Program-made: the position numbers and the translations under genes
Assembly: GCF_964355755.1 (NCBI RefSeq)
Contig: NC_092673.1
Span: 19,279,648 to 19,343,647 of the forward strand
DNA length: 64,000 bases
Direction of reading: 5' to 3'
Source of the DNA: Antedon mediterranea
Taxonomy: Eukaryota > Animalia > Echinodermata
Shown here: positions 12,886 to 62,762 of the stretch, piece by piece
Numbering within the stretch: the stretch's first letter is position 1
How the letters are laid out: each line of letters starts with the position of its first letter
Notes under the pieces: generated by a model
The model's input: only the letters and a program-made list of their open reading frames with translations
Database searches by the model: none
What the model was told of the DNA's origin: nothing

Positions 12886-12993
12886 CTGATTTGAAATACA
12901 AAGAGCAAACCATTAGATGCCAGAAACTTAAAATAAAAAATTAACTTAATGAATAAAGTTGTTAAATTTAATATAATAGACCTAAAGTTATAC

Positions 12994-26631: not shown

Positions 26632-27131
26632 TCATCTTTGCAACAACTTATTAACCTCATCTATTTTGTCTTCACTCAGCAACCCTCGAGGAACAAAATC
26701 AAATATCAGACTCCAGCTGTCTGCATACTTCTTAAGGACAGGGAAGTTGTGTCTTGCATCAAGTCTTCTGATAGCGGAATCCTTAAGATTTTTTCCAAGA
26801 TTAACAATCTTCATTGTGTGTGCAGGAAATGATACTACCTCACGTTTCTTGACGTCTTTGAAAGCAGGAAGCTTTTCTGTGACTGTTGACTCGAAGCCAA
26901 ATTGTTCAGTTACTTTTATTGCATCAAACAGTACAGACAGATTTGTTTGACTCAATCGCCCATTCGCAGATAAAAGAGTTAACAAGTCAATTGTACTGGT
27001 AACTTTTTTCAACTCTTCAATGTTGCTTACTATTCCTATGAATAGGACTTGTAGCCTGTTAAGGAGTCCACGTTCATCAAACCATTGTGCAAAGTCTGTA
27101 ATCAAGTGTTTAAAATCATCCTCTGAGAAAT
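26632..27131 (-). CDS. Last coding exon: tandem death-effector-domain-like helical region
   Basis: Acceptor tatag|at. DFKHLITDFAQW...IDLLTLLSANGRLSQTNLSVL and HTMKIVNLGKNL...WSLIFDFVPRGLLSEDKI resemble DED patterns (F..LL..l...L / LF..Le..g.l...nl..L). Judged by eye only. Confidence 0.62.
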
Positions 27132-33100: not shown

Positions 33101-36100
33101 ATTGTAAAGTTAAAAATTTAGGCGATTCTTGTCAAAGGTCAAGCGCCTTCAGCCTGCCACGTTTCGATATTCAATATTGAACTTGACCTGACGTGGTTCC
33201 ACAATATCTTTATATGAAAATGGTAGAATTGATAGGAAATAATAATTAATTCAAAATTTACCTAAAAATGGTTTTGAACTGAATCGATGGATGTCTTGTC
33301 GTTGTATGGTTTTGGTTTGGTTTAAAAGTATGTTCGATAAAGTGCGTGAGCGTATTAGAATGAAATGCTAGCGTATACAATGTGCGCGATGTCAAGTTGT
33401 GTACTGTGTGATACATGTAAGATTATAAGTGTATCGTACATTGTAGTAGAGCGAAAATAACATAGGTATAAAGGTAGGATATAAATAAGTAGTATAGGAT
33501 GTATAGAAAAAGGAATGGGTTGTTAGTTACAGGAAAGATTTTGAATGTCGTGAGGTGGTTTCCCGATTAATCGTACGATCAAAACGGTACTGGGTATGAT
33601 CAGGGTAGGGGTATATACCATGTGTTTTCATAAAGGAAGTAAAGTTGTAAGGTTGAGAGACTTTCTCATATCATAATCTTTATCTACTAGTAACTTACCT
33701 TCTCTTGGTTGAGATTGGTGACTGGATGATGTGCTTTCATTTTGGTCCTTATCACTACTGCCTAAAAATGATTAAAATGAGATGTACATTTACTAATTAG
33801 AAAAATGTTTATAGTACACAATGCCATTGTACAGTCTGTGGTGGAATATTGACAGTTACACTGCATACATTGTTTAACTATAGTCTCACATGGAATATTG
33901 ACAGTTCCACTGCATACATTGTTTAACTATAGTCTCACATGGATGCAATACAAAGATATAGGTTGCAATACACAGCTAATATGAGATCTATCCAATCCGT
34001 CACTTGTCATTGGTCAAATTACTTATGTTGTGTCTACGTTCTTGCATTGTAGTGATAATCCAAACCTTATCCACATATTATAGTCTTTTCATAGAAAAAA
34101 CTATTGTAATACTGTACTTAAAACTATTAATACACAAACAAGTTTGTGACAGATAAAATTATGTATTACTTATTCAAATATAATAATATGTTTTATAAAT
34201 ATCTGGCCTATTTAAACATTGAACCTCCAACATTAACATTTTTTTTAAACTTTAACTATCTTGACATTATTAAATAAATTATAGATTGCTAGTACAACTG
34301 GTAGGAGGGATGAAGATATCACAGCTAATAGCATCATGTTGTAACAATGTATAGATTATCAATAATGATTCTGATAGTACTACTACTGGTAAGAGGAATG
34401 AAGATATCACAGCTAATAACAGCATGTTGTAACAATGTATAGATTATCCATAATGATTCTGATAGTACTACTACTGGTAAGAGGAATGAAGATATCACAG
34501 CTAATAGCAGCATGTTGTAACAATGTATAGATTATCAATAATGATTCCGATAGTACTACTACTGGTAAGAGGAATGAAGATATCACAGCTAATAGCAGCA
34601 TGTTGTAACAATGTATAGATTATCAATAATGATTCTGATAGTACTACTACTGGTAAGAGGAATGAAGATATCACAGCTAATAGCATCATGTTGTAACAAT
34701 GTATAGATTATCAATAATGATTCTGATAGTACTACTACTGGTAAGAGGAATGAAGATATCACAGCTAATAGCAGCATGTTGTAACAATGTATAGATTATC
34801 AATAATGATTCTGAGAGTACTACTACTGGTAAGAGAATGAAGATATCACAGCTAATAGCAGCATGTTGTAACAATGTATAGATTATCAATAATGATTATG
34901 TTGTACTACTACTGATAAGAGGAATGAAGATATCACAGCTAATAGTAGCATGTTGTAACAATGTATAGATTATCAATAATGATTCTGATAGTACTACTAC
35001 TGGTAAGAGGAATGAAGATATCACAGCTAATAGCAGCATGTTGTAACAATGTATAGATTATCAATAATGATTCTGATAGTACTATTACTGGTAAAGAGGA
35101 ATGAAGATATCACAGCTAATAGCAGCATGTTGTAACAATGTATAGATTATCAATAATGATTCTGATAGTACTACTACTGGTAAGAGGAATGAAGATACCA
35201 CAGCTAATAGCAGCATGTTGTAACAATGTATAGATTATCAATAATGATTCTGTTAGTACTACTACTGGTAAGAGAACTGAAGGTATCACAGCTAATAGAA
35301 GCAGCATGTTGTAACAATGTATAGATTATGAATAATGATTCTGATAGTACTACTACTGGTAAGAGGAATGAAGATATCACAGCTAATAGCTGCATGTTGT
35401 AACAATGTATAGATTATCAATAATGATTCTGATAGTACTACTACTGGTAAGAGGAATGAAGATATCACAGCTAATAGCAGCATGTTGTAACAATGTATAG
35501 ATTATCAATAATGATTCTGATAGTACTACTACTGGTAAGAGGAATGAAGATATCACAGCTAATAGCTGCATGTTGTAACAATGTATAGATTATCAATAAT
35601 GATTCATTCTGATAGTACTACTACTGGTAAGAGGAATGAAGATATCACAGCTAATAGCAGCATGTTGTAACAATGTATAGATTATCAATAATGATTCTGA
35701 TAGTACTACTTCTGGTAAGAGGAATGAAGATATAACAGCTAATAGCAGCATGTTGTAACAATGTATAGATTATCAATAATCATTCTGATAGTACTACTAC
35801 TGGTAAGAGGAATGAAGATATCACAGCTAATAGCAGCATGTTGTAACAATGTATAGATTATCAATAATCATTCTGATAGTACTACTACTGGTAAGAGGAA
35901 TGAAGATATAACAGCTAATAGCAGCATGTTGTAACAATGTATAGATTATCAGTAATGATTCTGCTAGTAATTACATTACATAATAATCATTTGTTTTTGG
36001 GTCAAATAAATAAATGAAAATAAACTTGTATATATATTACTCTTACCTCCAAATAAACACTTGTAACGTAAAACATCCATCGTAACAGACTTGCCAGTTT

Positions 36101-39100: not shown

Positions 39101-42100
39101 AAATATACGTTGTACACATGTTTTATAAACTCTTTCTGTTTAAGTGCATCTCGAATCATTTTAAAGGCCTTCTTTGTCTGGTTGTAAACAATTTAAATAA
39201 ATGAAAACATGGGGTTAAACTGTAATTTCTTTTAAATAATATCTAAATACTTCAAGTCCTATTAGAGTACTGTAAAGAATACATTCATATAACAACTTTT
39301 GATATGAATGTATTCGATACAGTACTCTAGTAGCTAGTTTCTTTACATTAGCTTTTAGAACAGAAATGTATACTTGATTGATTGCTAATTTTAATAATGC
39401 AAGTATTAACCTCATCATTTTGTTGTTTTTCAGTCTCACCAAGCTTACCCTTATGTGTACCTACAATAAGGATAGTTGGTTGGTGAACTTCATTCTCCTC
39501 ATCTTCTTTCACAATACGACTATGAGAATAAACTGACAGGATGTAAGATAATATGAACTGGAGATTGGTCCAATGATGTTTACACTTTTGCTGTAAAAAA
39601 GAAAGACTAGTTTAAAAAACATTTTATCTTTGTTCTAGTAAAATGAAATTAAGAAGTAAATGATTTCTAACCACAATTAAAATGGTTAGGTTTCAAATAT
39701 GTAAATGTATGCAGCTCATTTGGAAGGTATGAAATAAAACTCTTTGTAATGCATAAAATATATAGCAAAATACTTACTCCATTGGAATCAATATAAACAG
39801 CAGGATCATTGAGGTCTACACTTAGGTCGAACACTACAATATAAAGTGCTTGTAATGTCATGAACATCTGCAAAAACACAATTTGTTTTTATTCAAATAT
39901 TTGATTAATATGCTTTAAGCAAAGATTGTATAGCACCGCTACGCGGCGCAAGATAGGTGACTGCACGACTATCATTTTATTCTGTAGGTTGTCTTTTGAT
40001 AAACTGTGTTTATACATTTACTATTGATACTCTTTTTAATGAAGCATTTTTCTAGTACAAATTCATATAAAACTGTTAAAATCAGTTATGATTGAAAACA
40101 GTTACTGAAAATACTTTTTTTATTGATGTAGGCAAAATTAGTAATAACACTTTATATAAAGCAGTACCATGGAAAGATGTTTGCGATTACTGAATGAACA
40201 AAATAAACCTTGGTCATACCATTATGTTAGTATATACAGAGACATTTCATTTTAACTGTGTATAGTATTTAAACAATGTCAATATAATATTAACTTCAAG
40301 GGAAATACATATATTATAACTTACCCGATGTATACCATGGTATATTAATTGACCTCCATTATCCCAGATGTTAAATGTTTCTTCCAAGGGGTCCTCCTTT
40401 TTTTCCTCAACTTTCTTGATTACATCTTTATCTAACTGCTGCTCTGTATCAAATGTAACAGCTTTAGTAGCTGTATAAGAACCTGTAGTGGAAACAAGTG
40501 TTTTGGTCACTCTCACCACATGTAAACAAACATCACTTCTAAATTATTGTAAAAGTCATTAACATATTGTTATAGTTGTTCTGATTATCATCACTGTTTT
40601 AATTGTCATTATCATTATTGCAGTCTTCATTATCATTATCATTGTTACACTGAGTCACCATCATTGTTATCATCATTATAGTTTTAGTTGACACTGTCAG
40701 AGTAGAGGTAGAAAAGTATGACTGTCACCATAATTGTTACACAGGTTAAAGGTTGCCTTACCTCCACCTCTGATCACATACATTTAATAATTTTATAGGA
40801 AAATTAAAAGTTACTTTAAATTGGAAAATCTAATTAATAATCTAATTAATTCAAATAACTACAGCACAAACTTAATATCACAGAAATTGCAAATTAGCTA
40901 CAAAATGTAATGTATATGTATTATGTAATATGTAATAATAATAATTAGAATTTAATGGAAAGTTACATACTATCATTTTTGTAATCATTGTTGTCGTTAT
41001 TTTTGTAATCATCATTGTTGTCATCCTTATTGTAGTCAACAACAATACCATCATCATCCTCGACATCATCTGTAGGTGGTTTCATGTCAATCTGATAAAT
41101 AACACAAAAAATGGATATAAAAAAGAAATAAATGTTTATTCAAAGTTAAATACAGTTTTGTTTACAATTTAATATAAGAGAAAACTAATATTATTTACTC
41201 TCAAAAACAAAACCAATTTGTTAGAGTAAATTTTTAAAGGATTGGAGCAAAAAAAAAAATGAAATAGCTGCTCATAATGCATCATGATTCATTTAGAAAG
41301 AAAGCCTAAGTGACTGGTTTGCAATAGTCCTGTAGGTGCTACTTTATTCATTTTATGTTTTCATTACACAATTATTTACATACGTTTATAGTTTTCTTTT
41401 CTCTCAGTTTGTCAGTGACGAATTTTGTATACTGTTTTAAAGGATTACCTGTAGAGAAAAAAGACATTTGCACATATTATTACAGCAGATACATTGATAG
41501 GTGACAATACTTTAACTGATTGATTAATTAATGTAAAATTACAGTACATCAACAAACAATAGGTTGCGTGTTAAAGGATCATGGAGTAACAATTGGTGTA
41601 TGTATGTGAAAATATGACTGTTGACATCATACTACAGTTGTATGCATTTATTGAATTCCATTCTACATCTCAGTTTCATTGTGGGCCTGTTTGTGTCTAT
41701 GATAATGAGATCAAAGATAAATATTGTTACATTGACTATGATGATGGGAAGAGTAATATGCTAATTTGTATTCATGTTTACCACTATCAGCTTTAGCCTC
41801 TTTCCATGTTGTGCTTACAGTCCTTATCACTGCTATGCCATCTGTAACTTTATGTTCTTCCTCAAATCTGAGATACATATAATAATAATATAATAATTTG
41901 AAACCAACAATGAATGTCATTCATTTTTAGTGCTGTAAAATTCAATTTTCTCTTTTTAATTATAGATACCAGTAGTTACTATTTCAATAGTCTTTATTTA
42001 TAAAATACACATTTTAAATCAGTTATTTAGTCAACAATTAAAATGATCTTTCATTTAAAATTACAAAACAATGTTAAAATTTAATTCTATTATCTATTAT

Positions 42101-45100
42101 TGTTATAATTAGGCAGTACCTACATGTATTTTGTAATTTCAATTTTACTGTCCAACTACTTACATCTTTCCAAGACAGGCATTTATGAGGCATGTTTTAC
42201 CCACTCCTTCCTGTCCAATCACCTTAAGCATTCCAAGATTGACTGCGACAGATCCTCCTTTCAAAGCTTCCTTGTAAGCTTCCTGATACTCTAATTCACG
42301 AGCAGCAATATCAGATGGAATATCTGAAAATTGAATCAAGATTTTAATAGATTTTTAAAACATCTGGAGTAAATAAAGTTAAAAAAAAAAAAATCATCAA
42401 TCAAGCATGCCACATAAATCTGCAAACTAGCTCCATTCCATTATTACAGTATTTTGGATGAAAACAATCAACTGTTTTATTTATGATAAATAAAATCTCT
42501 CCATTTGTTATTAGTTGCACACTTTTTCGCCTTTTTACAGTACCGCACAGAAATAATGCTTTTTTTAAATAACATTAGCGTCTAATTCTCTCCTTACTGA
42601 AATCCCATTTTAATCACAATTGTGTTAAATTATATATAGATACAATCATACAACATACAGCAGCTCTTGTGATTCTTATTAAACTCACCACTCTCTGGCT
42701 TACGAAGTTTTGTTATCTGTTTGTCACTTGTCGGTTTCTGAAATTGTGTTTGAAATTGCTCATCAACAGTACTTGGTAAATCTAAAAAAATACCAAAACA
42801 AAAATATTACATATTACATATTTTCATAAAAAACACTATATTAAAAGTCACAGCTTGGCAAAACTCTTGAATTGTCATATGGTATCTTTAAACTTTTTCA
42901 ATGGTATAAGGTTATATAAAAGCTTGTGGGTGACTGTGTACAAGCAATCGACTATACATGAAAATGGTAAACCTCATTCATTCTGGATATACTATAATAA
43001 TAATGTATTTTTTTTAACTAAAATGTATACAGTTAACAACTACAGTTATTAATTATGTCCTAAAAAATGTGTGGAACTCAAACTCATCCAAACATATAGG
43101 CGTTATGCAACATTTTTTGACAGAGATCCTGAATCTAAATCATTTCTAGCACCATACGGTTGATTAGGATTTCAATGTGTAAAGTGAAAATAAAGTAATC
43201 CTGAAATGAATAACTGGTATGATTCAGAATTTGCCAGTAGGAATTATTGACCACCTATCGTAAGTTTTTAATATGCCTTGAACTTTTTAAATGTTTTTAT
43301 TTATATTCTGTTTTATGACCAGTAACCAATTTTGTTTTTATACCTGTGTGAAAACACAATAAAGATAACTTGAACTTGAGCCCACCATGGTTTGGGCTGA
43401 ATTTTGCCAATATAGACCTGGAATTGCATTTTTAAAGGCCTACAATAAAGGCACTGTTCTTTATACACTTGGTAGAGCTTGGTTATGCTTTGTGGGACTT
43501 GGTGTTTAGAATAACACATGTATGATGCTTAATTTTAGATACAGAAAAATAGTATTCTTAAGCTGGCTTAAAAATGTGTGAAGAAAATTCATTCATTGTG
43601 GAAACAAAAAATGGGATTAACAAGAAAATGTTTTATTTTTATATTCAATATTTATCTCCTCCTATCGTAAATTGTTTTCCTCGAAGGCGAATGTGGGAAG
43701 GAGGAGTTTGAATTTGTCTATTGGTTTTACCCATAGTAAAAAAATTAGTAGAATTTAAGTAGACTTATTAGTAGAAATAGCTCTATTTTCAGTAGTTTTT
43801 TAGTAGACCTTTTTATCTCGACTACTAAGGATTTTAACTGAATGAGTCAACGATGGAACGACTACTTCCCAGCTATAAAATAGATAGTTGATTAATATTT
43901 AACTGGCTATTATCAGTTTCTTTATAGTCTATTGATAGGTCATTGGTAGTCTTGTATAGCTATAATAAGTAGACAGTAGATAGATAGATATGATACTCAT
44001 AGATTTCTAATAGCTATCTGGTAGTCCATATCTATCTATTGTATAAAATAGATAGTTTATTAACAGTTACTGGCTATTATCAGTTTGTTTATGTCTATTA
44101 ATAGGTTGCTGGTAGCCTATTGTATAGCTATTGTAAGTAGACAATAGATAGATGCATACAACTGTGTTACTCACAGATTAAAAATAGTGAAAAATCTATC
44201 TAACACTATTAGTGGGGGTTTTGAATTATGCTAATGAGGTAAAACCTATTAGGAACTATCTAAATTCTACCTAAAATCTACTTATTAGTAGGTGCTTAAT
44301 AGGTAATAGAGCTATATCTATTAAGGGGATAACTTTTAAGGCGAATAGATATAGAGATATATCTACTAAGAACTTTTAATTAAGCGCCATCATTTACGGT
44401 AGTAACCTGGTACGCACGGCGCGCTGAAAATCCGGTGATTCAGCTCCTCGAAGAAGACGAATTATTATTTAAAATGTGTGAAGGAAATTCATCCATTGTG
44501 GAAACAAAAACTGGGATTTAACAAGAAAATTAGATTTTTATATTCAATATTTATCTCCTCCTATTGTAAATTGTTTGCCTTGAATGTGAATATCAATTGT
44601 ACATAGCATTATATATAAAATAGATTAGATTTAAAAAAAAAAAATCTACATTTTACATTTATGTGCAATTAATAAAGTTCAAATATTCCTTAACAATGCA
44701 TGTCCCCCGTCCGATTATTGTAACTAGTTTAAAGTGAAGCCTCCTATCAAAAGCCCCTTGAGGTTTATTGAAGGTCCCTTTCATCTTAAAATCATCATCA
44801 TCATCATCATCATTAAAATCTCTTTATTTTTGTTATGTGTACTGTTTTGATGTATTGAATAAAGAGATTGATTTGATTTGAAAAATGATTTATTTAATAT
44901 TTTTATTTACAAGGAATTTTAAAGTTTGCGTTTTTGTGTTATTTTTATCGTATTTATAGCAAAATAATTTACATCTTGCAACATATCACAACTTCCATGT
45001 ATACTACTATCCCACTGAATTATTTAATCTATAATAAACCTGTGAATGATATATCATAAATGTTAATTTTCTTTATCTGGACATTCTTCTTCACTTGATG

Positions 45101-48100
45101 AGAAATCAAATCTTTATCGTTTGTAATGAAAACTAGTTGATCCTAAAATTTCAATAATTAAAACTTCACTTACCTTCTAAGAAGTTTAAAATTTCAGTTT
45201 TACTTTGCTCCTCTATCCACCTGTTACTTTCTAAAACTGAGACAAGTGTATTTCCATCCTATTAAAAAAATGGGTTTAGTTAATAGTAGTTTTGAGAAAT
45301 TATTGATATACAATATAACACACTTTAATTACGCATCACATACATACAGTATTATGTCATGGCTCAAACATTTACCATCTAGAGATTGGATGAAAGAGCA
45401 TCATGTGATAACACATAGATTTACTATTTTTTAACATTGGTTGTAAATTAGGACGTGAATAGAAATTACTATTTGCTAATAAATGACATCAACTTGTACA
45501 GTGCGCCTATAACACCGCCTTCAACATTGAAAGATGGAGGAGAGAGATAAATTTAATAAAAGTTTACTTTGGAAATGTAGGTAGATGTGTTAAAATGTTT
45601 GAGCCATAATAGAAAACAACAAATAGTTTTACTATAAACTTTCAAAGCAAATAATATTTGGATACTATCCAGAAACAAATGAAATATCCCTGTATAATCC
45701 CAGTACACTACCTTCTTTGCAATGTTGCTGGTGTATAATACTGACAACAAACATTATGTGAAATTGGGTTTTTTTTGTCAACCCAAACCACAGCAAAAAT
45801 TACTGCTAAATAATGTGGTAAATAATCATAAATGTCGACTATTGATAAATGAAAACAAAATATAATATCTTACCATGGATCAAATGTAGTATAGTGTCAT
45901 TAAAATCTACTTACTGTACAATATCAATCACAAAATTTGAACATTAATAATTTAATACATATTTTATAAAATTGTACAAACAAATGTTTAGATGTTAAAC
46001 ATAATGTATGAGGCCAATAAGCAGTTAAATGAATTTAAATATAAATTTAGGTAATGGGAAATTTCAGTAAATTAAGTGCAACTTCTAGAATTTTTACTCA
46101 ATGGTAGAGAAAGTTGGTACATCCTTTCAGTACTGATTTTTAACACCCAATGAAACCAATATCATACTTAAGATAAGTTAGATATTAACGATAACAAATT
46201 TAGTTTAAACCATTTGCCTCAATGAAAATCATATCATATCATGAAGCCTGATACCATCCCATCATCCAATGTACCAAAACAGGAATTTGGTGAACAATAC
46301 CGTGTAATAAACAAAATTAAGGTAATTCTCAGGATGACAATTATATTTGACTACATAAATCCCATCATATCTGTATTTATTTGCTTTGTGTACAGTGTGA
46401 CTTGGACAATTTTTAGTTATTTCCCAAAGTTTATTTATTCGAGAACCATTTGTGGGCACTTAATACTAGTATATTCAATTTTAACTAGCAACTTTATAGA
46501 ATCATTTTTCCAAAAAAGGTACGGGACTGTTTGAAAAGAATAATTTCATATTATGAAAAAAAAGATCCTAGGTTGGAAAAGGATCTCTTTAAGGCCATGT
46601 TCATAATTAGGTGGGTAGATGGACAGAAGCATTTTTTTTATAAGGTAAGGGAGGGAGCAGGTTATTCATTAATAATTATTTTTTATTAAAATTAGATTCT
46701 ATTAATTTTTTTAACATACATTTTTTTATTTGTTGTTTTATTATTAGTCAATGTAGTTGTCCCATTTTATTTCATATTTACAATTAATTAGACCATTGTC
46801 AATCGTTGCTATCTTTACAGCTACATAGGAGCAATTTATATTTGTTTTACGGTCAAAAATATGTAAACAAAATTATACTGATTCACCTGAACATATAAAA
46901 AAAGTAGATTTTTTTGTTCATTAAGAAAATTAAAGATGTATGTTATGTGATAGGAACAATGCCATGCAATAAACAAAATTAAGTTAATTCTCAGGATGAC
47001 AATTATATTTGACTACATAAATTCCATCATATCTGTATTGCTTTGTGTACAGTGCAATTTTCAGTTATTTACCAAAGTTCTTGTATTCAAGAAGCATCTG
47101 TGAGCACTTACTAGTATATTATATTTTAGCGAGAAATCATTTTTCCAAAAAAGTCATAAGATAAGAGACGGAACTTTTCTTAAAAGCATTCAGTTTGAAA
47201 AGAATAATTTCATATTACCTTTCTTTTTTAAATTGCATTACTCAAACAATTTAGATTTTGAAAACTAACAAAACATTGTTTACATTTCTCTTCCTTTTGT
47301 GGCCAAATGTTTGCACAAAAAGATCCTAGGTTGGAAAAGGATTTCTTTAAGGCCATTTTCATAATTAGCTGCATTTTTTTTGTAAGATAAGGGAAGGAGC
47401 ACATTATTAATTAATAATCGTTTTTTCTTAAAATCAGATTCTATTAATTTTTTTAACATAAACATTTTTAGTTGTTTAGTAGTTGTCGCATTTTATTTCA
47501 TATTTACAATTAATTAGACCGTTGTCAATAATTGTTAATTAATAACTGAATATATTAAAAAATAGATTTTTTTGTTGATTAAGAAAATTAAAGATTTATG
47601 TTATATGATAGGTAACTGTACACTTTAAATCAGATCATAAATCATATATAACTATTTAGTTATTTTTTTATTTGGTTTGTTTTAATCAAATTTGATTTTT
47701 GTTAATGTGCTTACTTTTTTCTCTCATTAAATGGTTTACTTTACAGATCTATATAATGTTAGCTTATTACACTAGCAAATCCCTGTACATTTACCTCATT
47801 TTGCAATGCTACTGGTGCCCCATGCTGAATGAGACAAGTCACTATTTCTAAGGTAGCTGTACATACACGCCTCAGATATGAATGTAATGGAGTGTCACCA
47901 TCCAGGAAAGGAATCATAATGAAGTTTATAAATACTGACAACAGACATTATGTGAAATTGTTTGTTTTTTGTCAATACAAACAACAACAATTGCTGCTAA
48001 ATATTATGGTAAATAATCATAATTATCATTATTAATAAATGAGTAGAACAAAATAGAATGGTTTACCACAGCATATCTATAGAATGTTAGCTTCTTACAC

Positions 48101-51100
48101 TAGCAAATCCCTGTACATTTACCTTATTTTGAAATGCTACTGGTGCCCCATGCTGAATGAGACACGTCACTATTTCTGAGGTAGGGTCTCTATGCCTCAG
48201 ATAGTAATGTAATAGAGTGTCACCATCCTGGAAAGGAATCATAATGAAGTTTATAAATACTGACAACAGACATTATGTGAAATTGTTTGTTTTTTTGTCA
48301 ATACAAACAACAACAATTGCTGCTAAATATTGTGGTAAATAATCATAATTATCATTATTAATAAATGAGTAGAACAAAATAGAATGGTTTACCACAGCAT
48401 ATCTATAGAATGTTAGCCTATTACACTAGCAAATCCCTGTACATTACCTTCTTTTGCAATGTTGTTGGTGTATAATACTGACAACAGACATTATGTGAAA
48501 TTGGGGGTTTTTTTGTCAACCCAAACCATAGCAAGAATTACTGCTAAATAATGTGGTCAATAATCCTAATTGACATGATTGATAAATGAGAACAAAATAG
48601 AATATCTTACCATGGATCAGATCTAAAGATTGTTAGCCTATTACTATTACAGAAGCATTTTTTTGTAAGGTAAGGGAGGGAGCAGGTTATTAATTAATAA
48701 TTATTTTTTTATTAAAATCAGATTCTATTAATTTTTTTGACATAAGCATTTTTATTTGTTATTTTATTATTAATCAATGTAGTTGTCCCATTTTATTTCA
48801 TCTTTACAATTAATTAGACCATTGTCAATCATTGTTATCTTTACAGCTACATATGACCAATTTATATTTGTTTTACGGTCAAAAATAAGTAAACAAAATT
48901 ATACTGATTCACCTGAATATAAAAAAATGTCCAATTGCATTGCTCGAACAATTTTAGATTTTGGAAACCACTATAAACTAAACATTATTTAGTTTTACAT
49001 TTCTCTTCCATTTGTGGCAAAATGTTTGCAAAAAAAAAAAATGCTGGAAAAAGATCTCTTTAAAAGGCCATATTCAATCTGTAATTAGCTGGATATACTG
49101 ACAGAAGTATTTTTTTGGAAGGTAAGGGAGGGAGCAAGTTATTAACAATTAATAATTCTTTTTTATTAAAATCAGATTCTATTAATTTTGTTAACAATAA
49201 CACAAACATTTTTGTTTGCTATTTTATTATTTGTCAACAAACTGTAGTTGTCCAATTTTATTTCATATTTATAATTAATTAGACCATTTTCAATTGTTGT
49301 TATCTTTACAGCTACATATGACCAGGGAGTTGTCATTTTACAACTCCCTGATATGACCAATATATATTTATTTTATGGTAAAAATATTTAAACAAAATTA
49401 TAGTGATTCACCTGAATATAAAAAATTACAAGTAGATTGTTTTTGTTCATTAAGAAAAAAGATATATGTTATTTGATGAATAACTGTATACTTTAAATCA
49501 GTTATCATAAATCATATATAACTGTTTAGTTATTATTTTAATTTGATTTCTTTTAATAAAATTTGATTTTTGTTAATGTGCTTACTTTTTTCTCTCATTG
49601 AATGGTTTACTTCAGCATATCTATATAATGTTAGCTTATTACACTAGCAAATCCCTGTACATTTACCTTATTTTGCAATGCTACTGGTGCCCCATGCTGA
49701 ATGAGACAAGTCACTATTTCCAAGGTAGCTGTAAATCCCATCACCAGATATGAATGTAATAGAGTGTCACCATTCTGGAAAGGAATCATAATGAAGTTTA
49801 TAAATACTGACAACAGACATTATGTGAAATTGTTTGTTTTTTTTTGTCAATACAAACAACAACAATTGCTGCTAAATATTGTGATAAATAATCATAATTA
49901 TCATTATTAATAAATGAGTAGAAAAAAATAGAATGGTTTACCACAGGATATCTATATAATGTTAGCCTATTACACTAGCAAATCCCTGTACATTACCTTA
50001 TTTTGCAATGCCACTGGTGCCCCATGCTGAATGAGACACGTCACTATTTCTAAGGTAGGGTATCCTCTCCCCAGATATGAATGTAATGGAGTGTAACCAT
50101 CCTGGAAAGGAATCATAATGAAGTTTATAAATACTGACAACAGACATTATGTGAAATTGTTTGTTTTTTTTGTCAATACAAACAACAACAATTGCTGCTA
50201 AATATTGTGATAAATAATCATAATTATCATTATTAATAAATGAGTAGAACAAAATAGAATGGTTTACCACAGCATATCTATATAATGTTAGCTTATTACA
50301 CTAGCAAATCCCTGTACATTACCTTATTTTGCAATGCCACTGGTGCCCCATGCTGAATGAGACACGTCACTATTTCTAAGGTAGGTGTATATCCACCCCA
50401 CAGATATGAATGTAATGGAGTGTTACCATTCTGGAAAGGAATCATAATGGAATTTATAAATACTGACAACAGACATTATGTGAAATTGTTTGTTTTTTTT
50501 TGTCAATACAAACAACAACAATTGCTGCTAAATATTGTAGTAAATAATCATAATTATCATTATTAATAAATGAGTAGAACAAAATAGAATGGTTTACCAC
50601 AGCATATCTATAGAATGTTAGCTTATTACACTAGCAAATCCCTGTACATTTACCTTATTTTGCAATGCTACTGGTGCCCCATGCTGAATGAGACACGTCA
50701 CTATTTCTAAGGTAGGTGTATATCCACCCCACAGATATGAATGTAATGGAGTGCTACCATTCTGGAAAGGAATCATAATGGAATTTATAAATACTGACAA
50801 CAGACATTATGTGAAATTGTTTGTTTTTTTTTGTTAATACAAACAACAACAATTGCTGCTAAATATGGTGGTAAATAATCATAATTATCATTATTAATAA
50901 ATGAGTAGAACAAAATAGAATGGTTTACCACAGTATATCTATAGAATGTTAGCCTATTACACTAGCAAATCCCTGTACATTTACCTTATTTTGCAATGCT
51001 ACTGGTGCCCCATGCTGAATGAGACAAGTCACTATTTCTAAGGTAGGTGCAGAATATCCAATCACCAGATAGTCATGTAATGGAGTGTCACCAGACTGGA

Positions 51101-54100
51101 AAGGAATCACAATAAAGTTTATAAATACTGACAACAGACATTATGTGAAATTGTTTGTTTTTTTTGTCAATACAAACAACAACAATTGCTGCTAAATATT
51201 GTGGTAAATAATCATAATTATCATTATTAATAAATGAGTAGAACAAAATAGAATGGTTTACCACAGCATATCTATAGAATGTTAGCCTATTACACCAGCA
51301 AATCCCTGTACATTACCTTATTTTGCAATGTTACTGGTGTATAATACTGACAGACGTTATGTGAAATTGGGGGGTTTTTTTGTCAACCCAAACCATAGCA
51401 AGAATTACTGCTAAATAATGTGGTCAATAATCCTAATTGACATGATTGATAAATGAGAACAAAATAGAATATCTTACCATGGATCAGATCTAAAGATTGT
51501 TAGCCTATTACTATTACAGAAGCATTTTTTTGTAAGGTAGGGAGGGAGCAGGTTATTAATTAATAATTATTTTTTTAATTAAAATCAGATTCTATTAATT
51601 TTTTTGACGTAAGCATTTTTATTTGTTATTTTATTATTAATCAATGTAGTTGTCCCATTTTATTTCATCTTTACAATTAATTAGACCATTGTCAATCATT
51701 GTTATCTTTACAGCTACATATGACCAATTTATATTTGTTTTACGGTCAAAAATATGTAAACAAAATTATACTGATTCACCTGAATATAAAAAAATGTCCA
51801 ATTGCATTGCTCGAACAATTTTAGATTTTGGAAACTACTATAAACTAAACATTATTTACATTTCTCTTCCATTTGTGGCAAAATGCTTGCAAAAAAAAAA
51901 ATGCTGGAAAAAGATTATTCTTTTTATTATTCTTTATTAAAAACAAACCAATTGGCAGCAAATCTGCTGAATTGCATGGTAAGGAACAATATACATTCAA
52001 AAGACAAGAAAAGTATAGTCATTATAAAACAAAATAATCGCAATTACAAAATATATTTAAATGTAAACATAAAGTTTAAAAAAATAGTCAAATTGCAAGG
52101 ATATAGTATATACATTATAACTTAATTACAGTATAAAAATATAATCTTAAATTTAAGTTGCAGTATTTACATTGGTTTCTTAATTAAAGTCGACTTCAGA
52201 CAATTAAATAATTACAATTAAACATTTACAAAAACATCAAATACAAAATTAAATGAGAATTAAGAATAAATTGAGTCAAATTCAAGAAATTTCTACTAGG
52301 CCAATATGTCAAATTAATTAATATCTGGTTACATTATACATTTATTTTCTTTTATTATTTAATCAATACTGTTGAGGCAGCGAGTGAGAAACGGGATTGC
52401 ACTGTTTCCATATCTATTTGTCTTATTTTTGGGGACCTGGTATGTATTACTTTTCCGTAAGGCCATATTATGCGTACTCATATTTCTCGGAAACCACTCA
52501 GCATATCTATACGCATTAGCACATTTCTTTGCAAATTCAATGCAAAGTTGGTAACGTCTCTCAGTCATGGTATGGAGTCCCAACTGCTTCAGTGATTCCG
52601 TGTATGATACGTAATCCGCACCCACGATAATGCGGCATGCTCTCTTTTGGATTCGCTCCAATTGGTAGGTCTGTTCCTTGGTTATACTGCTATGCCAAAC
52701 CGGGACAGCGTACTCACTTATTGGGCGAACATAACACGTATACACGGAGGTCAAATCTTCAGTCGGGACACCAAACCGTTTGAGACGTGATAGCATGTAT
52801 AGTCGTCGACTACTTTTACTAATAATATCATTAAGGTGGGACTGCCAGCCAAGATTGGACTGGATAGTCAAGCCCAGAAGCCTGGTCTCAGACACCACCT
52901 CGAGCTCCACCCCAGCGATTTGAAGGTGAGGAGGGTTAGGCGGTTCCTTCATAAAACAAACCTGCATAGCCTTGCACTTACTGGGGTTGAGCTCGAGACG
53001 GTTGTCCGTTGCCCAAGCATCCAGATCCTGAACATCCACTCCAATCTGGCTGGGTTGATTTGCGGGACGAACTTCTACAAGGCTGAGGTCATCAACATAC
53101 TTAAAACTTTCAGCCAGAGACTCCTCAGAGGCATTATTGATAACTACCATGAAGATTATGGGGCCTAGCTTGGTGCCTTGTGGGACGCCACAGGAAAGCG
53201 TCTCCCACCGTGACAAGGCAGAGTGGTATTGCACTCGTTGGCGACGAGATGTAAGGAAGTTTGTTATCCATGGCAGTAACTCGCTTCTGACACCAAGCTC
53301 GAAGAGTCTCTGAATAGCTAAAGTATGATCGATACAGTCAAACGCCTTGGAGAAGTCCGTCACAATAAGGGTGCCAACATTCTTACCCTTGTCTGTACCT
53401 TTAAAAAACAAATCAAGTATTTCAATAAGACAATGGGCAGTGGATGATCCTTTTATGCCACCATATTGGTTACGATCAATTTCTTTACCTATATCTTCCA
53501 TAACCCAGTTGGAAACAAATCCCTCGCATACCTTCGCAAGAATCGATGTCAAAGATATTGGTCTTAATTTAGAGATTGAGGCAGGGGTAGTCTTTGGGAT
53601 AGGGGAAATTGTGGCATCCTTCCACATTTTAGGAACAATTCCCTCTTTTAGAGATGAGTTAAATAAGTCACAAACGGGAACGCTGAACTCGCACGCGAAC
53701 TCTTTAAGAAGTCTCCCAGGGAGGTCGTCGGGTCCAGCCGCTTTCTTACTTTTCAAATTTTTCAAGTTATTGTACATTTCCCACACTTCAATCCTAGGTG
53801 GAGCATTTGCAGGTAGAAAGGTAGGTAATTGTTTTAAGTTGATTGGGGGTCTACCTTGGGTGACAGAAGCAAATTCATTACTTATAGCTTCTGATCTGTG
53901 TACGTAAACTATGCAATCTAAAAAATCGAACCATGCTAAAATTCCCTGGCCACTCAAATCAAGATCTTGCAAATGATATCAATAACCACTTTGCATCTGT
54001 GTGCCGACAGCTTCCCCCAGTTGATGTAAATGCTCTTCCTGCATATTTGCCTTCACCTGAACCCCCGCCAAAAATTTTTCCTGGACAAGTCAGACGATTG

Positions 54101-57100
54101 ATTAATAAACTAAAGTCAAAGAAGTCTAGTCACCCTGATGACTTGCCAATTAAACTTATAAAAGAATTCGCCTTTGAAATTGCTACTCCACTTGCCCATA
54201 TTTTTAATTGTTGTCTTAATGAAGGTGTATTTCCCGAGTTATGGAAGTTAGCAACAGCCATTCCTGTTCCAAAAGTTCCTAATGTGACATCATTTCAAGA
54301 CCTCAGGCCAATTTCACTTACCCCCATCTTTGCCAAGTTGTTTGAGTCATTCCTTACTGATTGGGTGACTAGTGACATTCATCAACATTTAGATATTAAA
54401 CAATTTGGTTGCCGTAAAGGCTCATCTACTAGCCATTATCTTGTGGACATGATTAAGTCTGTAATTAGTGATATTGAAAAAGGTGATTCTTTTGTGGATA
54501 TTTGTGCCGTTGATTTTACGAAGGCCTTCGACCGAATTGACCATACGGTCATTGTTAGAAAGCTTGTCGACATCGGAGTGAGAACATCTATTATTCCCAC
54601 CATCTGTAGCTTTCTGACGGATCGTAAAATAAATACTAAACTTAGTTCATCCTTTTCCCCTTATGCCAACATCACATGTGGGATTCCACAGGGTACAAAG
54701 CTTGGGCCAATTTTGTTTCTTATATTAGTCAATGATATCTCTATGGAAGGCTGCAGATGGTGGAAGTATGTTGATGATCTCACTCTTGGTGACACTGTTA
54801 AACATGGTAATGCTCCTAAACTTCAATCTTGTCTTGATGACCTTACTGAGTGGTGTGATACAAATCACATGGTCCCTAAACCCTCTAAGTGTCATATCAT
54901 GAGAGTTAATTTTTTGAAAAGAAATATTCCCCCTCCTAATTATTACCTTAGCGGTACAACACTTAATGTTGTTTCGTATATGAAGCTCCTTGGACTTATA
55001 ATCCAGGATGACTTGAAATGGGATAATAATGTCAGTGACATGGTAAAAAGAGCATCCAAAAGGTTGTATACGTTATATATCCTTAGAAGGGCCAATGTAC
55101 CAGTTCATGATATGATATCCGTTTATGTTTGTTATATTCGCCCAATCTTAGAATACGCCTGCCCTGTGTGGCATGGAAGCATCAATAAGGCCCAAATATC
55201 GACCATTGAAAGAGTGCAAAAGAGAGTTTTACGTATTATTCTGGGTCCCGCTTTCCTTACGTATGATTCTTGAGCTTACTGATATGACCACTCTCGCATC
55301 CAGACGAGAGACGTTGATTCAAAAATTTGGAGAAAGGCTCTTGAAATCGGAATTGTACAGAACTATTTTGCCCGACTACCGCATTATTAATAGAGAGCTT
55401 AGATCAACCACGGTAGATAAACCCCTAATTAATATACCTGTTTGCAGAACTAACCGTCTTAAGACTTCGCCTGCCCTTACCATAAGTAGAATCCTTAATT
55501 CAAACAGTACCTGATCACGCTGAAGATGGCTATGTTATAAATATTTACATATATTGGCCTATGCATTTGTATATAAATTTTGGAATCTTTTTAACATAAC
55601 ATAATTTTATTTTTTTAACTGATTTTTTCAAATTTTTTAATGTTTTGTATAAATTTTTGTATTTTTTTAAATGTTTCTGTTTCCATATATTTATATATAT
55701 ATTTTTGTAAATCAACAATTTCAGCCTTCGGGCTGCATGTTTTTTATTGTATAAACCTGAATAAATAAATAAATAAAAAAATAAAAAAAAATCTCTTTAA
55801 AAGGCCATATTCAAACTGTAATTAGCTGGATATACTGACAGAAGTATTTTTTTGGAAGGTAAGGGAGGGAGCAAGTTATTAACAATTAATAATTCTTTTT
55901 TTATTAAAATCAGATTCTATTAATTTTGTTAACAATAACACAAACATTTTTGTTTGCTATTTTATTATTTGTCAACATACTGTAGTTGTCCAATTTTATT
56001 TCATATTTATAATTAATTAGACCATTTTCAATTGTTGTTATCTTTACAGCTACATATGACCAGGGAGTTGTCATTTTACAACTCCCTGATATGACCAATA
56101 TATATTTATTTTATGGTAAAAATATTTAAACAAAATTATAGTGATTCACCTGAATATAAAAAATTACAAGTAGATTGTTTTTGTTCATTAAGAAAAAAGA
56201 TATATGTTATTTGATGAATAACTGTATACTTTAAATCAGTTATCATAAATCATATATAACTGTTTAGTTATTATTTTAATTTGATTTCTTTTAATAAAAT
56301 TTGATTTTTGTTAATGTGCTTACTTTTTTCTCTCATTGAATGGTTTACTTCAGCATATCTATATAATGTTAGCTTATTACACTAGCAAATCCCTGTACAT
56401 TACCTTATTTTGCAATGCTACTGGTGCCCCATGCTGAATGAGACACGTCACTATTTCTGAGGTAGGGTATAGACTCCTCAGATGTACATGTAATGGAGTG
56501 TCACCATCCTGGAAAGGAATCAAAATCATGAAGTTTATAAATACTGACAACAGACCTTATGTGAAATTGGGGTTTTTTCACAATACAAACAACAACAATT
56601 AATGCTAAATAAAGTGGTAAATAATCATAATTATCATTATTAATAAATGAGTAGAACAAAATAGAATGGTTTACCACATCATATCTATAGAATGTTAGCC
56701 TACTACACTAGCAAATCCCTGTACATTACCTTCTTTTGCAATGCTACTGGTGCCCCATGCTGAATGAGACAAGTCACTATTTCTAAGGTAGGTGCAGTAT
56801 ATCGACCCCGCAGATATGAATGTAATAGAGTTTCACCATACTGGAAAGGAATCATAATGAAGTTTATAAATACTGACAACAGACATTATGTGAAATTGTT
56901 TGTTTTTTGTCAATACAAACAACAACAATTGCTGCTAAATATTGTGGTAAATAATCATAATTATCATTATTAATAAATGAGTAGAACAAAATAGAATGGT
57001 TTACCACAGCATATCTATAGAATGTTAGCCTATTACACTAGCAAATCCCTGTACATTACCTTATTTTGCAATGTTACTGGTGTATAATACTGACAGACGT

Positions 57101-60100
57101 TATGTGAAATTGGGTTTTTTTGTCAACCCAAACCATAGCAAGAATTACTGCTAAATAATGTAGTCAATAATCCTAATTGACATGATTGATAAATGAGATA
57201 AAAATAGAATATCTTACCATGGATCAGATCTAGAGATTGTTAGCCTATTACTATTACAGAAGCATTTTTTTGAAAGGTAAGGGAGGGAGCAGGTAATTAA
57301 TTAATAATTATTTTTTATTAAAATCAGATTCTATTAATTTTTTTGACATAACCATTTTTTATTTGTTATTTTATTATTAATCAATGTAGTTGTCCCATTT
57401 TATTTCATCTTTACAATTAATTAGACCATTGTCAATCATTGTTATCTTTACAGCTACATATGACCAATTTATATTTGTTTTACAGTCAAAAATATGTAAA
57501 CAAAATTATACTGATTCACCTGAATATAAAAAAATTACAAGTAGATTTTTTTGTTTGTTAAGAAAATTAAAGATATATGTTATTTGATAGGCAACTGTAA
57601 ACTTTAAATCAGTTATCATAAATCATATAAACTATTTAGTTATTATTTTTATTTGGTTTGTTATAATCAAGTTTGATTTTTGTTAGTATGTTTATTTTTT
57701 TCTCTCATTTAATGGTTTACCGCAGCATATCTACAGAATGTTAGCCTATTACACTAGCAAATCCCTGTACATTACCTTATTTTGCAATGCTACTGGTGCC
57801 CCATGCTGTACGAGACACGTCACTATATCTTACCATGGATCAGATCTAGTGATTGTTAGCCTATTTACTTAATGTAAGTTATTAGTCATTAAATCTACTT
57901 ACTGTACAATATCAAACACAAAATTTGAACATTAATAAAATACATATTTCATAAAATTGTACAAACAAATGTTCAGCATTCAAAATATGAGGCCAATAAG
58001 AAGTTTAATGAATTTATATATAAATTTAGGTAATAGGAAATTTCAGTAAATAAAGTGCAACTTCTAGAATTTTTACTCAATGGTAGAAAAATTGGTACAT
58101 ACTTTCAGTACTGATTTTTAACACCCAATGAAACCATTATCATAATTAAGCTATTAAGATATTAGATATTAACGATTAAAAAAAATTTAGGTTAAACCAT
58201 TTTCCTCAATGAAAATAATATCATATCATGAAGCCTGATACCATCCCATCATCAAATGTACCAAGACAGGAATTTGGTGAACAATACCATGCACTAAACA
58301 AAATTAAGGTAATTCTCAGGATGACAATTATATTTGACTACATAAATTCCATCATATCTGTATTTATTTGCCTTGTGTACAGTGCGACTTAGACAATATT
58401 CAGTTATTTACCGAAGTTTATGTATTCGAGAATCATCTGTGGGCACTTAATTACCAGTATATCAAATTTTAACTGGCAACTTTAATAGAATCATTTTTTC
58501 CAAAAAGTCATAAGATAAGATATGGCACTGTTTGAAAAGAATAATTTCATATTAAATTTCTTTTTGAAATTGCATTGCTCAAACATTTTTACTAAACTAA
58601 ACATTATTTACATTTCTCTTCCTTTTGTGCAAAATGTTTGTTTGGAAAAGGATCTCTTTAAGGCCATATTCATACTGTATGTGATAAGACTGTCAGAAGT
58701 ATTTTATTGTAAAGTAAGTAAAGGGCAGGAGCAGGTTATTAACAATTAATAATCCTTTTTTATTGAAATCAGATTCTATTTTTAACATAAACATTTTTTA
58801 ATTTGTTATTTTATTAATAGTCAATGTAGCATGTCCCATTTTATTTCGTATTTACAATTAATTAGACCATTGTCAATCGTTATCTTAAAGTACATACAGT
58901 AATAATGAGCAATTTATATTTGTTTTACGGTCATAAAAATGTTAACAACATTGTAGGTTTCTAATATGAAGATTTTTTTGTTCATTAGAAATAAAAGATT
59001 TATGTTATTTGATATGTAACTACACATAATCAGTTCATAAATCAAATGAACTATTTAGTTTTTTATTTGGTTTGTTGTAATCAAGTCTTCACTTTTTCTC
59101 TAATTGTAACATTTTTCACAAAATCATGTCTGGTATGCTTCATTTAGATTCTGCTAAGCTTTGATTTATTTATATTATTATTTTTAGCCTAATGTTGTTA
59201 ATCAGTGCATGCAGGTTATACCTCCATCATCAGCGTGTATTTATATTATTATTTTTAGCCTAATGTGGTTAATCAGTACATGCAGGTTATACCTCCATCA
59301 TCAGTGTGTATTTATATTATTATTTTTAGCCTAATGTGGTTAATCAGTACATGCAGGTTATACCCCCATCATGAGTGTGTATTTATATTATTATTTTTAG
59401 CCTAATGTGGTTAATCAGTACATGCAGGTTATACCCCCATCATCAGTGTGTATTTATATTATTATTTTTAGCCTAATGTTGTTAATCAGTACATGCAGGT
59501 TATACCTCCATCATCAGTGTGTATTTATATTATTATTTTTAGCCTAATGTTGTTAATCAGTACATGCAGGTTATACCTCCATCATCAGTGTGTATTTTAT
59601 TATTATTTTTAGCCTAATGTGGTTAATCAGTACATGCATGTTATACCTCCATCATCAGTGTGTATTTATATTATTATTTTTAGCCTAATGTGGTTAATCA
59701 GTGCATGCAGGTTATACCCCAATCATCAGTGTGTATTTATATTATTATTTTTAGCCTAATGTGGTTAATCAGTACATGCAGGTTATACCTCCATCATCAG
59801 AGTGTAAATATATTATATTATTTTTAGCCTAATGTGGTTAACACGTTCACTGCCACGGCGTATTTATACGTCAAAAATTGCGTGTCGCTACTTGCCAAGA
59901 CGTAATACTACGTCAAAATCGTAGCACTTTTGTATTGTATGTAGAATCGCTGGCAGTGGTGATTGGAACAGGAATTATCGCATGGCAGTTTATGAATGAT
60001 GTACGTAAACGATAATCTAAAAATAAATGTCATATGTTTGTTTGTGTTTATTCCCTCATGCATTGAATATGGTTGATACGATGGCGCCCTCACACTCAAT

Positions 60101-62604: not shown

Positions 62605-62762
62605 TTCAAAAATACAGTGTGTTCATTTAACAATTATTAATACGGATAGCTTCTAGTGTAAAAGTAAGCCTACACATTCTGTTCTGAAAATATGAAAGGT
62701 AAAACATAATTTCATCAGACAGAAACCTTTGCATTAAAGGCTACGACAATTCAATTGCACCG

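Follow-up and report, generated by a model that had tools for sequence, protein, structure and literature searches.

The window, by which we mean the whole 64,000-nucleotide stretch of Antedon mediterranea contig NC_092673.1 analysed here, contains on its minus strand a predicted gene of 27 coding exons, all bounded by GT-AG, whose 1266-aa product has no internal stops. The predicted domain order is N-cap, ankyrin cassettes, C-cap, ROC-COR and tandem death effector domain (DED); the protein opens with the N-cap helix, and no signal peptide is evident. The features, in transcript order and with the evidence for each, are as follows.

62597..62604, minus: first coding exon part (start codon); N-terminus common to paralogue models P0033, P0036 and P0001
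62255..62351, minus: N-capping repeat exon; 94% to P0033, 75-78% to P0001/P0036; two helices in paralogue model
57776..57830, minus: remnant cassette, 5' half deleted, donor retained; sequence comparison
57060..57082, minus: remnant cassette, reduced to its exon end and donor; sequence comparison
56730..56840, minus: cassette exon E1 (ankyrin, 111 nt); exon anatomy, Pfam
56404..56508, minus: cassette exon E2 (ankyrin, 105 nt); peptide identical in paralogue P0033
51916..55770, no strand: intronic insert, LINE-type reverse transcriptase (RT) ORFs in opposite orientation, boundaries approximate; empty site near 49055
53888-55270, plus: LINE-type RT ORF in intronic insert; ORF
52362-53978, minus: LINE-type RT ORF in intronic insert; ORF
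51317..51339, minus: remnant cassette; sequence comparison
50985..51095, minus: cassette exon E3 (ankyrin, 111 nt); exon anatomy
50654..50761, minus: cassette exon E4 (ankyrin, 108 nt); exon anatomy, Pfam
50323..50430, minus: cassette exon E5 (ankyrin, 108 nt); recent duplicate of E4
49997..50101, minus: cassette exon E6 (ankyrin, 105 nt); exon anatomy
49667..49774, minus: cassette exon E7 (ankyrin, 108 nt); exon anatomy, Pfam
48448..48470, minus: remnant cassette; sequence comparison
48123..48227, minus: cassette exon E8 (ankyrin, 105 nt); exon anatomy
47795..47902, minus: cassette E9 (108 nt), open frame, without AG acceptor; splice-site check
45712..45734, minus: remnant cassette, the oldest, end approximate; sequence comparison
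45174..45258, minus: C-capping repeat exon; gene model, comparison with P0032
42689..42781, minus: linker exon; gene model, paralogue comparison
39411..42323, minus: ROC GTPase exons, P-loop exon 42164-42323; junctions align gap-free with RefSeq paralogue P0032 over 286 aa
36047..39177, minus: COR and following exons; COR-A E 2.5e-7
33699..33761, minus: short linker exon; gene model
26632..27131, minus: last exon, predicted tandem DED; weak Pfam DED and predicted fold

Organisation of the cassette array

The first-pass annotation had described a single array of nine exons in cassettes of about 330 bp, differing in length by whole codons. The span (47795..56840), strand and peptides of the nine exons stand as described, the unit period of exon plus intron measures 326-333 bp, and the lengths of 105, 108 and 111 nt are all multiples of three, with a splice-frame check placing every exon in phase 0 on both sides. 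However, only eight exons are usable as they stand, and the cassettes, while they do repeat, fall into three blocks (2 + 5 + 2 exons) rather than a single run, with duplicated spacers between them, one of which carries the ~3.9-kb insert with its two RT ORFs. A GT donor is present in 9/9 cassettes and an AG acceptor in 8/9, E9 being the exception; the two nearest AGs that might substitute (-32 and +32) give frameshifted exons with stops. E9 may be a silent spare cassette, an allele or an assembly error. Over 44900-57200 contigs of four sequencing runs cover the introns, and none spans the array; the canonical base seen among them at the E9 acceptor position, 47904, and the exon joints listed may stem from other loci, as paralogous units pile up there. 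Five truncated, donor-only remnants (57776, 57060, 51317, 48448 and 45712) are interspersed, and a blast search of the window with E4 found no inverted repeat exon. The introns of the gene also hold satellites.

The gene model and its ROCO context

Exon junctions are consistent with RefSeq models P0032 and P0002, the latter being the model at this locus and spanning the COR part only, and the frame stays open even with zero cassettes included. Among the proteins retrieved, the N-half of only 1/9 cassettes was found. The C-cap differs from that of P0032 at 5/28 residues, as against 9/258 downstream (Fisher p 0.007).

The ROCO context originally proposed is borne out by ROC motifs G1, G2 and G3 and by a COR domain directly behind them (COR-A E 2.5e-7 on one exon). 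Pfam Roc is weak on single exons and scores 53.7 bits with paralogue P0032, whose identity is 96%, and COR lies above the Pfam cut-off in the full-length paralogues P0004, P0011 and P0013. G4 is atypical, without the usual aspartate in this subfamily, so that the use of GTP by the predicted ROC domain is not assured. Neither the 15 exon translations nor the full paralogues gave a Pfam match to NACHT or NB-ARC (STAND ATPase).

The last exon matches Pfam DED at E 0.002, below the cut-off, and a sequence search against solved structures returned two weak, unrelated matches only; the assignment was settled by fold. The predicted model (pLDDT 87) contains two six-helix DED folds, its best Foldseek match is the caspase-8/cFLIP tandem DED (TM 0.74, E 8e-4), and the Foldseek matches listed are all caspase-8/cFLIP/vFLIP DEDs. 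We predict on this basis that the exon encodes a tandem DED of caspase-8/cFLIP-like fold.

Diversity and codon selection

All nine cassette copies are mutually distinct, with differences that are mostly non-synonymous and site-specific, and mean column identity among their peptides is 84%. The introns show a pi of 0.039, with 28 of 216 gap-free columns segregating, whereas 17/30 first and second positions segregate in codons 1-15 (Fisher OR 8.8, p 4e-7). In these codons pN is 0.261; in the C-half pN is 0.023 and pS 0.082. Both the near-invariance of introns and C-half and the faster divergence of coding positions noticed at first sight are upheld in the aligned cassettes. The pattern is plain in E2 and E7: of the first 39 nt, 11 are different between the two exons, yet the 542-bp spacers that follow share 99.4% identity.

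Codon models were run with custom code and naive empirical Bayes rather than with PAML or HyPhy, and without codons 14-16, which are made ambiguous by indels and which inflate pS in the diversity comparison. M2a was favoured over M1a on 4/4 trees (2dlnL 37-43; omega 11.5-16), with sites assigned to positive selection at codons 1, 3, 8, 11, 12 and 13; omega = 1 was rejected for codons 1-13 alone (LRT 19.2). A parsimony count of non-synonymous versus synonymous changes in codons 1-15 reached only p 0.051. It is likely, as had been suggested, that the predicted binding-face codons are under diversifying selection.

Ankyrin fold and position of the variable sites

The ankyrin identity of the repeats was confirmed by Pfam Ank in 3/3 cassettes tested, two of them at or above the curated cut-off, and by structure prediction for a paralogue with 81% identity (pLDDT 93), for which DARPins lead the Foldseek list at TM about 0.8. 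The DARPin scheme comprises six variable positions. The proposed likeness of the variable surface to that scheme holds in part: 4/6 selected sites coincide with positions that differ among the repeats of DARPin 6mol_A (hypergeometric p 0.004), but the remaining two DARPin-variable positions, in the hairpin, are fixed in the cassettes, which additionally vary at positions 8 and 13 and in a helix1-helix2 insertion of 2-4 residues. The variable sites fall in the inner helix and hairpin, as defined by DSSP of the paralogue model; that they share one binding face is predicted from secondary-structure position and by analogy.

Recombination and the paralogue family

The four-gamete test fails in 66/136 informative site pairs, as expected of mosaic, recombining cassettes, and the E2 peptide recurs in P0033. 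The nearest C-half neighbour lies within the same gene for 37/39 repeats (ties allowed). In diverged Antedon paralogues on other chromosomes the same positions are variable, and per-position variability correlates with that of the separately homogenised arrays of P0072 (rho 0.59) and P0079 (rho 0.58). RefSeq isoforms P0216 (X1) and P0092 (X2) of one paralogue differ by exactly one 36-aa repeat. No ankyrin form from Anneissia or other echinoderms appeared among the top ~8000 candidates scored.

Discussion

We consider it probable that the cassettes make up the variable portion of a feather star gene of the ankyrin-ROC-COR-tandem-DED type, with one phase-0 exon per repeat between fixed cap exons, and that its product is likely an intracellular immune sensor; the labels 'library' and 'immune receptor' that the first-pass annotation attached to it are inferred. 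In such a gene the near-identical introns would favour gene conversion and unequal crossing-over, both inside a paralogue and from one paralogue to another, and these would add, delete or swap whole repeats without frameshift while homogenising the framework. Selection would retain new contact residues in the cassettes, and cassette skipping would likely add isoforms. A foreign or modified-self molecule might then bind the concave ankyrin face and so switch the ROC-COR unit to another state, and caspase-8/FADD-like partners would be brought in by the tandem DED. The scheme would be that of an NLR in which a ROCO GTPase plays the role of the STAND ATPase.

The same diversifying receptor could also serve a non-microbial ligand, in allorecognition, in gamete or symbiont recognition, or in conflict with selfish elements, and the best-studied hypervariable arrays of near-identical repeats, those of Podospora HNWD, act in allorecognition (PMC13449251). 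We think this unlikely, since the lack of an evident signal peptide and the predicted terminal tandem DED suit a cytosolic death-pathway sensor, and a family spread over several chromosomes with many fragments suits birth-and-death immune genes, although allorecognition would be compatible with both.

A little less likely again is a reading without selection for novelty, in which the surface codons simply lack constraint or are subject to local hypermutation, and in which introns and C-halves stay alike through gene conversion or the demands of splicing. The introns are probably homogenised, as their pi lies below the C-half pS, and are alone a weak neutral yardstick; under a harsh null of hot neutral codons with free recombination, 3/76 simulations reach the observed LRT (p about 0.05); and the same positions vary across ankyrin repeats in general, being the most variable in 17/21 ANK-Roc proteins examined, so that their recurrence at the protein level can by itself reflect low constraint. 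However, five framework codons interleaved with the variable ones are invariant, third positions included, a model with a selection class fits better, by 5 lnL units (LRT 10.5), than one of as many parameters with a neutral fast class, and relaxed constraint alone would limit omega to 1, far from the estimates of 10-16.

Mutually exclusive splicing of the Dscam type, with one or two cassettes per transcript between the caps, draws on the phase 0 of every cassette exon and on paralogue models P0032, P0033 and P0001, which have two repeats only. We judge it improbable and reject it at the level of annotation, given that annotation assigns 4, 6 or 8 repeats in a single chain to other paralogues, that 220-nt introns with full splice sites leave no steric exclusion, and that reverse-complement matches of the unit intron to the flanking introns reach 11 nt at most. 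Least probable of all is a decaying copy or assembly artefact, to which the lost E9 acceptor, the five remnants, the RT inserts and satellites in introns and the fragmentary RefSeq model might point, but which sits poorly with an open frame across 27 exons and with nine distinct copies whose site-specific, mostly non-synonymous pattern is unlike errors.

Beyond the diversified sensor that we favour, a wider reading can be offered only tentatively: a crinoid germline repertoire of ankyrin binders on ROCO sensors spread over several chromosomes, in which the cap-and-cassette module would move between GTPase subfamilies, loci trade repeats, individuals differ and exons be skipped combinatorially, feeding a caspase-8-type death pathway as a natural deuterostome DARPin system convergent with the brown-algal LRR-ROCOs. 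If so, the eight cassettes of this gene would yield up to 256 exon subsets by skipping. The sensor that we favour would itself place ankyrin repeats among the few scaffolds on which animals build diversified recognition, and in that class of echinoderms whose immunity has been studied least; brown algae and an animal would then have arrived convergently at sensors with one exon per repeat and a ROCO GTPase in the same chain. A chain that combines putative sensor, switch and death effector offers a handle on the role of kinase-less ROCO proteins, and protein engineers may find use in the naturally varied ankyrin positions, including a length-variable helix1-helix2 loop absent from standard DARPin modules. 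As annotation pipelines fragment such loci, the genomes of other invertebrates may hold further arrays of this kind that have gone unnoticed.

Comparison with known systems

Animal ROCO proteins with ankyrin repeats include LRRK1/2 and DAPK1, the last with a death-fold domain; these are single-copy kinases with ordinary, diverged ankyrin repeats, whereas the feather star gene has no kinase. Arthropod Dscam1, an Ig-domain receptor of the cell surface with mutually exclusive exon choice, likewise derives receptor variants from tandemly duplicated exons in an invertebrate; the feather star repeats are predicted to be cytosolic and appear additive. The predicted product resembles DARPins in having an N-cap, variable internal modules, a C-cap and a constant framework, and its caps vary as in later DARPin libraries (PMC8229355, PMC8602657). 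DARPins are, however, artificial and built of 33-residue modules, as against 35-37 residues, a variable helix1-helix2 insertion and a small germline repertoire here.

In fungal NLRs with highly conserved ANK, WD40 or TPR repeats, the portions of the reports consulted describe a few positively selected positions, in inner helix and hairpin, together with changes in repeat number and exchange of repeats between genes (Dyrka 2014, PMC4986451; PMC13449251). Near-identical ankyrin repeats, hypervariable positions on the predicted binding face and a layout of sensor, switch and death effector are shared with these, but the fungal proteins have a NACHT/NB-ARC switch, a C-terminal sensor and an N-terminal effector, in place of ROC-COR, an N-terminal array and a C-terminal DED; with ROC-COR as the switch and no NACHT/NB-ARC match in the exon translations or full paralogues, the gene does not class with the NLRs built on a STAND ATPase. 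Those same portions describe neither one exon per repeat nor splicing-based variation for fungal NLRs.

The brown-algal LRR-ROCO genes, the precedent named from the outset, do match their description: ROC-COR with an N-terminal array of one exon per repeat (Zambounis 2012, PMC3341825; Teng 2024, PMC11378527), repeat exons that lie inactivated in introns, recombination both within and between genes, diversifying selection, alternatively spliced repeat exons and an immune role that is proposed and unproven (PMC3341825; PMC11378527). Exon-per-repeat structure, dead repeat exons, recombination and likely diversifying selection all recur here. The algal exons, of 72 nt (in phase 2 according to Teng 2024, PMC11378527), encode LRRs, a repeat type ruled out for the cassettes by Pfam and fold; the feather star exons are ankyrin, 105-111 nt and phase 0, and the gene, in a deuterostome animal, adds dedicated cap exons and a predicted C-terminal tandem DED. 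It also departs from the algal genes in that the E4 search of the window met with no inverted repeat exon. The first-pass annotation knew of no ankyrin-based animal example, and our literature search found no description of an animal combining an ankyrin cassette array with ROCO and DED; hypervariable ankyrin arrays are known from fungal NLRs. The single ingredients are already familiar from brown-algal cassettes and fungal ankyrins; what appears new is their combination in an animal.

Cassette array and gene model

The array proposed by the first-pass annotation is real and essentially as described. It comprises nine minus-strand ankyrin exons of 105, 108 or 111 nt (E1-E9 in transcript order) with phase 0 at either end; the units, which had been put at about 330 bp, measure 326-333 bp.

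Features of the array, in window coordinates
62255-62351, minus, exon of the N-terminal capping repeat (N-cap)
56730-56840, minus, E1
53888-55270, plus, reverse transcriptase (RT) ORF
52362-53978, minus, RT ORF
47795-47902, minus, E9
45174-45258, minus, exon of the C-terminal capping repeat (C-cap)
57776, 57060, 51317, 48448 and 45712, truncated cassette remnants

A GT donor is present in 9/9 cassettes and an AG acceptor in eight of the nine, the exception being E9, for which both nearest alternative acceptors are out of frame. Dead cassettes occur alongside five remnants, which retain only the exon end and the donor. The array falls into three blocks (E1-E2, E3-E7 and E8-E9); the duplicated spacers between them share 97-99% identity, and the E2-E3 spacer contains the two RT ORFs. 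These are opposed, LINE-type (Pfam RVT_1) and were inserted together; an empty copy of the insertion site lies near 49055.

The gene model, assembled from splice sites visible in the sequence, spans 62604 to 26632 on the minus strand and has 27 coding exons (E1-E8 included) encoding 1266 aa; every intron is GT-AG, there are no internal stops, and the reading frame survives removal of all cassettes. The encoded order is N-cap, cassettes, C-cap, linker, ROC, COR, short linker and last exon. Pfam Ank was matched by all three cassettes tested (25.1, 21.2 and 17.9 bits; cut-off 21.1), Roc weakly by two exons, and COR-A by one (E 2.5e-7). The last exon gave a sub-threshold DED match and a predicted fold of pLDDT 87, for which every listed structural match was to a tandem DED of caspase-8, cFLIP or vFLIP (best TM 0.74, E 8e-4). 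Within the COR region, one exon matches an Antedon mediterranea RefSeq protein (P0002) at 100% identity, and 28 of its 29 protein matches are from this species (24 on one 36.2-Mb sequence), the other being from Anneissia japonica. As P0002, the RefSeq model at this locus, covers only 37811-34026, the gene is annotated as a fragment. The junctions of P0002 agree with our model, as do those of the paralogue P0032, gap-free over 286 aa. The last exon of P0002 (34026-34166, minus) partly duplicates the final stretch of exon 36047-36263. The G4 motif of the ROC domain (39411-39590, minus) lacks the usual aspartate, as in the close paralogues P0004, P0011 and P0013, and this residue is retained in the paralogues P0072 and P0035 and in the Anneissia relative; the nucleotide specificity of the domain may differ.

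Divergence and selection

The claim that coding positions outpace the neighbouring introns held: intron pi was 0.039 (216 gap-free columns), and non-synonymous change in the N-terminal half of the cassette ran at about six times the intron rate (p 1e-11). Over codons 1-15, pN was 0.261 and pS 0.135, the latter raised by indel-affected and multi-hit codons, and over codons 18-37 the values were 0.023 and 0.082; the five framework codons interleaved with variable codons are invariant at all three positions. Counted directly, the non-synonymous excess over synonymous change in the N-terminal half was only marginal (p 0.051). E2 and E7 have 11 differences in their first 39 nt, against 99.4% identity in the 542-bp spacers that follow them.

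Codon models (our own implementation of M1a and M2a, 34 unambiguous codons) favored M2a on the exon, intron, combined and star trees (2dlnL 38.8, 39.1, 37.4 and 42.8; omega 11.5-16). The amino-acid excess is site-specific, with sites 1, 3, 8, 11, 12 and 13 exceeding 0.9 on all four trees and site 5 on three. The cassettes are mosaic, the four-gamete test failing for 66 of the 136 informative site pairs. We therefore applied a harsher null in which the fast codons are neutral; the fit still improved when omega was added (LRT 10.5), and omega = 1 was rejected on codons 1-13 by themselves (LRT 19.2). Of 76 null simulations with free recombination, 3 reached 10.5, and the support that the dN/dS analysis with recombination control gives to the proposed diversifying selection on the cassettes is therefore good but not overwhelming. 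The C-cap also evolves faster than the GTPase (5/28 against 9/258 residues differing from a paralogue; p 0.007), and N-caps differ at the end of the first helix.

In a predicted structure of the paralogue P0030 (N-cap and three cassettes, 81% identical to E4; pLDDT 93), which matches designed ankyrin repeat proteins (DARPins) at a TM of about 0.8, the hairpin preceding helix 1 holds sites 1 and 3, sites 5, 8, 11 and 12 lie on helix 1 roughly one turn apart, and site 13 and a 2-4 residue insertion occupy the helix 1-helix 2 turn. From these positions and by analogy, the variable sites would face one surface. DARPins are randomised at six positions per repeat, and the inter-repeat differences of the DARPin 6mol_A correspond to cassette positions 35, 37, 1, 3, 11 and 12. 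The suggestion that the DARPin-randomised positions are those that vary is correct for four (p 0.004); the remaining two do not vary among the cassettes, and one of these sits at the splice donor.

Paralogue family

Cassette-profile searches found the same repeat type in Antedon proteins encoded on the 36.2, 39.0, 22.3, 28.6 and 41.4 Mb sequences.

Representative proteins
P0072, N-cap, eight repeats, C-cap, ROC-COR and DED
P0230, four repeats
P0079, six repeats
P0247, six cassette-type ankyrin repeats and a KH-like domain, without a Roc match (Antedon)

The last of these suggests that the module may occur on further receptor types. Within a gene the repeats resemble one another (identity 0.75 in P0072 and 0.76 in P0079) more than they resemble those of the window (0.63 and 0.46), and per-position variability tracks that of the window (rho 0.59 and 0.58). 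An exon-per-repeat layout is likely in the paralogues, since the first five residues of the P0032 model are intron-derived and identical to those at the window acceptor, and the P0033 and P0036 models break at a repeat end. E2 is found unchanged in P0033. RefSeq isoforms X1 (P0216) and X2 (P0092) of one paralogue differ by exactly one 36-aa repeat, which we take as cassette skipping at the level of annotation.

The window ROC-COR is 72-85% identical to those of neighbours that include the DED-first ROCO P0013. As identity falls to only 25-27% for the ROC-COR in P0072, P0035 and P0230 and in the first half of P0001, while the P0001 N-cap is 75% identical to that of the window, the cap-and-cassette module was likely transferred onto a second GTPase subfamily. 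In Antedon, the window's own ROC-COR subfamily is also joined to further modules (N-terminal DED, kinase and death domain among P0013, P0026, P0023 and P0024), pointing to extensive domain shuffling. A set of unnamed ANK-Roc proteins counts against uniqueness of the array: at the protein level, 17 of the 21 examined have at least three parsed repeats, with a mean identity of at least 0.70 in seven, varying at the same positions. Records of this kind (P0228-P0323, P0062 and P0134), many with repeats that are internally similar, possibly constitute a second undescribed family.

Other elements in the window

6606-9176, minus, 857-aa ORF with RT and weak GIY-YIG matches, likely a Penelope-type retroelement
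12971-14065, minus, open frame of 365 codons matching a PHD finger and an OTU-like protease, possibly transposon-borne and unrelated to the array
59167-62115, large intronic/intergenic satellite, period 71 bp
62759-63255, the same, 31 bp
34293-35969, the same, 88 bp
27646-32470, the same, 85 bp
21673-25674, the same, about 100 bp
1-1424, the same, 89 bp

Proposed mechanism and comparison with known systems

It is reasonable to postulate that unequal crossing-over and conversion among near-identical units would allow repeats to be gained, lost and exchanged in frame, that selection would keep new contact residues, and that cassette skipping could supply extra isoforms. Ligand binding is predicted to act through the ROC-COR switch, ultimately exposing the tandem DED to caspase-8/FADD-like partners.

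This ankyrin-ROCO family goes unmentioned in the accessible portions of PMC8195603, PMC9334734 and PMC11463336. Our literature search, made chiefly in open-access papers, returned neither crinoid ankyrin-ROCO genes nor an animal exon-per-ankyrin hypervariable array. Animal examples with ankyrin repeats may be included in figure 8 or the supplements of PMC13449251, or in figure 2 of PMC11378527, which deals with animal ROCO architectures. The DARPin layout, with randomised caps, is described in the available text of PMC8229355 and PMC8602657. From the portions available, brown algae have ROCO genes with one exon per LRR, subject to shuffling, selection and alternative splicing (PMC3341825, PMC11378527); the window gene works like these LRR-ROCOs, yet is not one of them. 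In a fungal NLR with near-identical ANK repeats, five concave-face positions are positively selected (PMC4986451, in part), and repeat exchange is reported for fungal-type NLR arrays, such NLRs being said to be present in animals as well (PMC13449251, in part). The window ROCO gene works like these arrays, yet is not a member of them.
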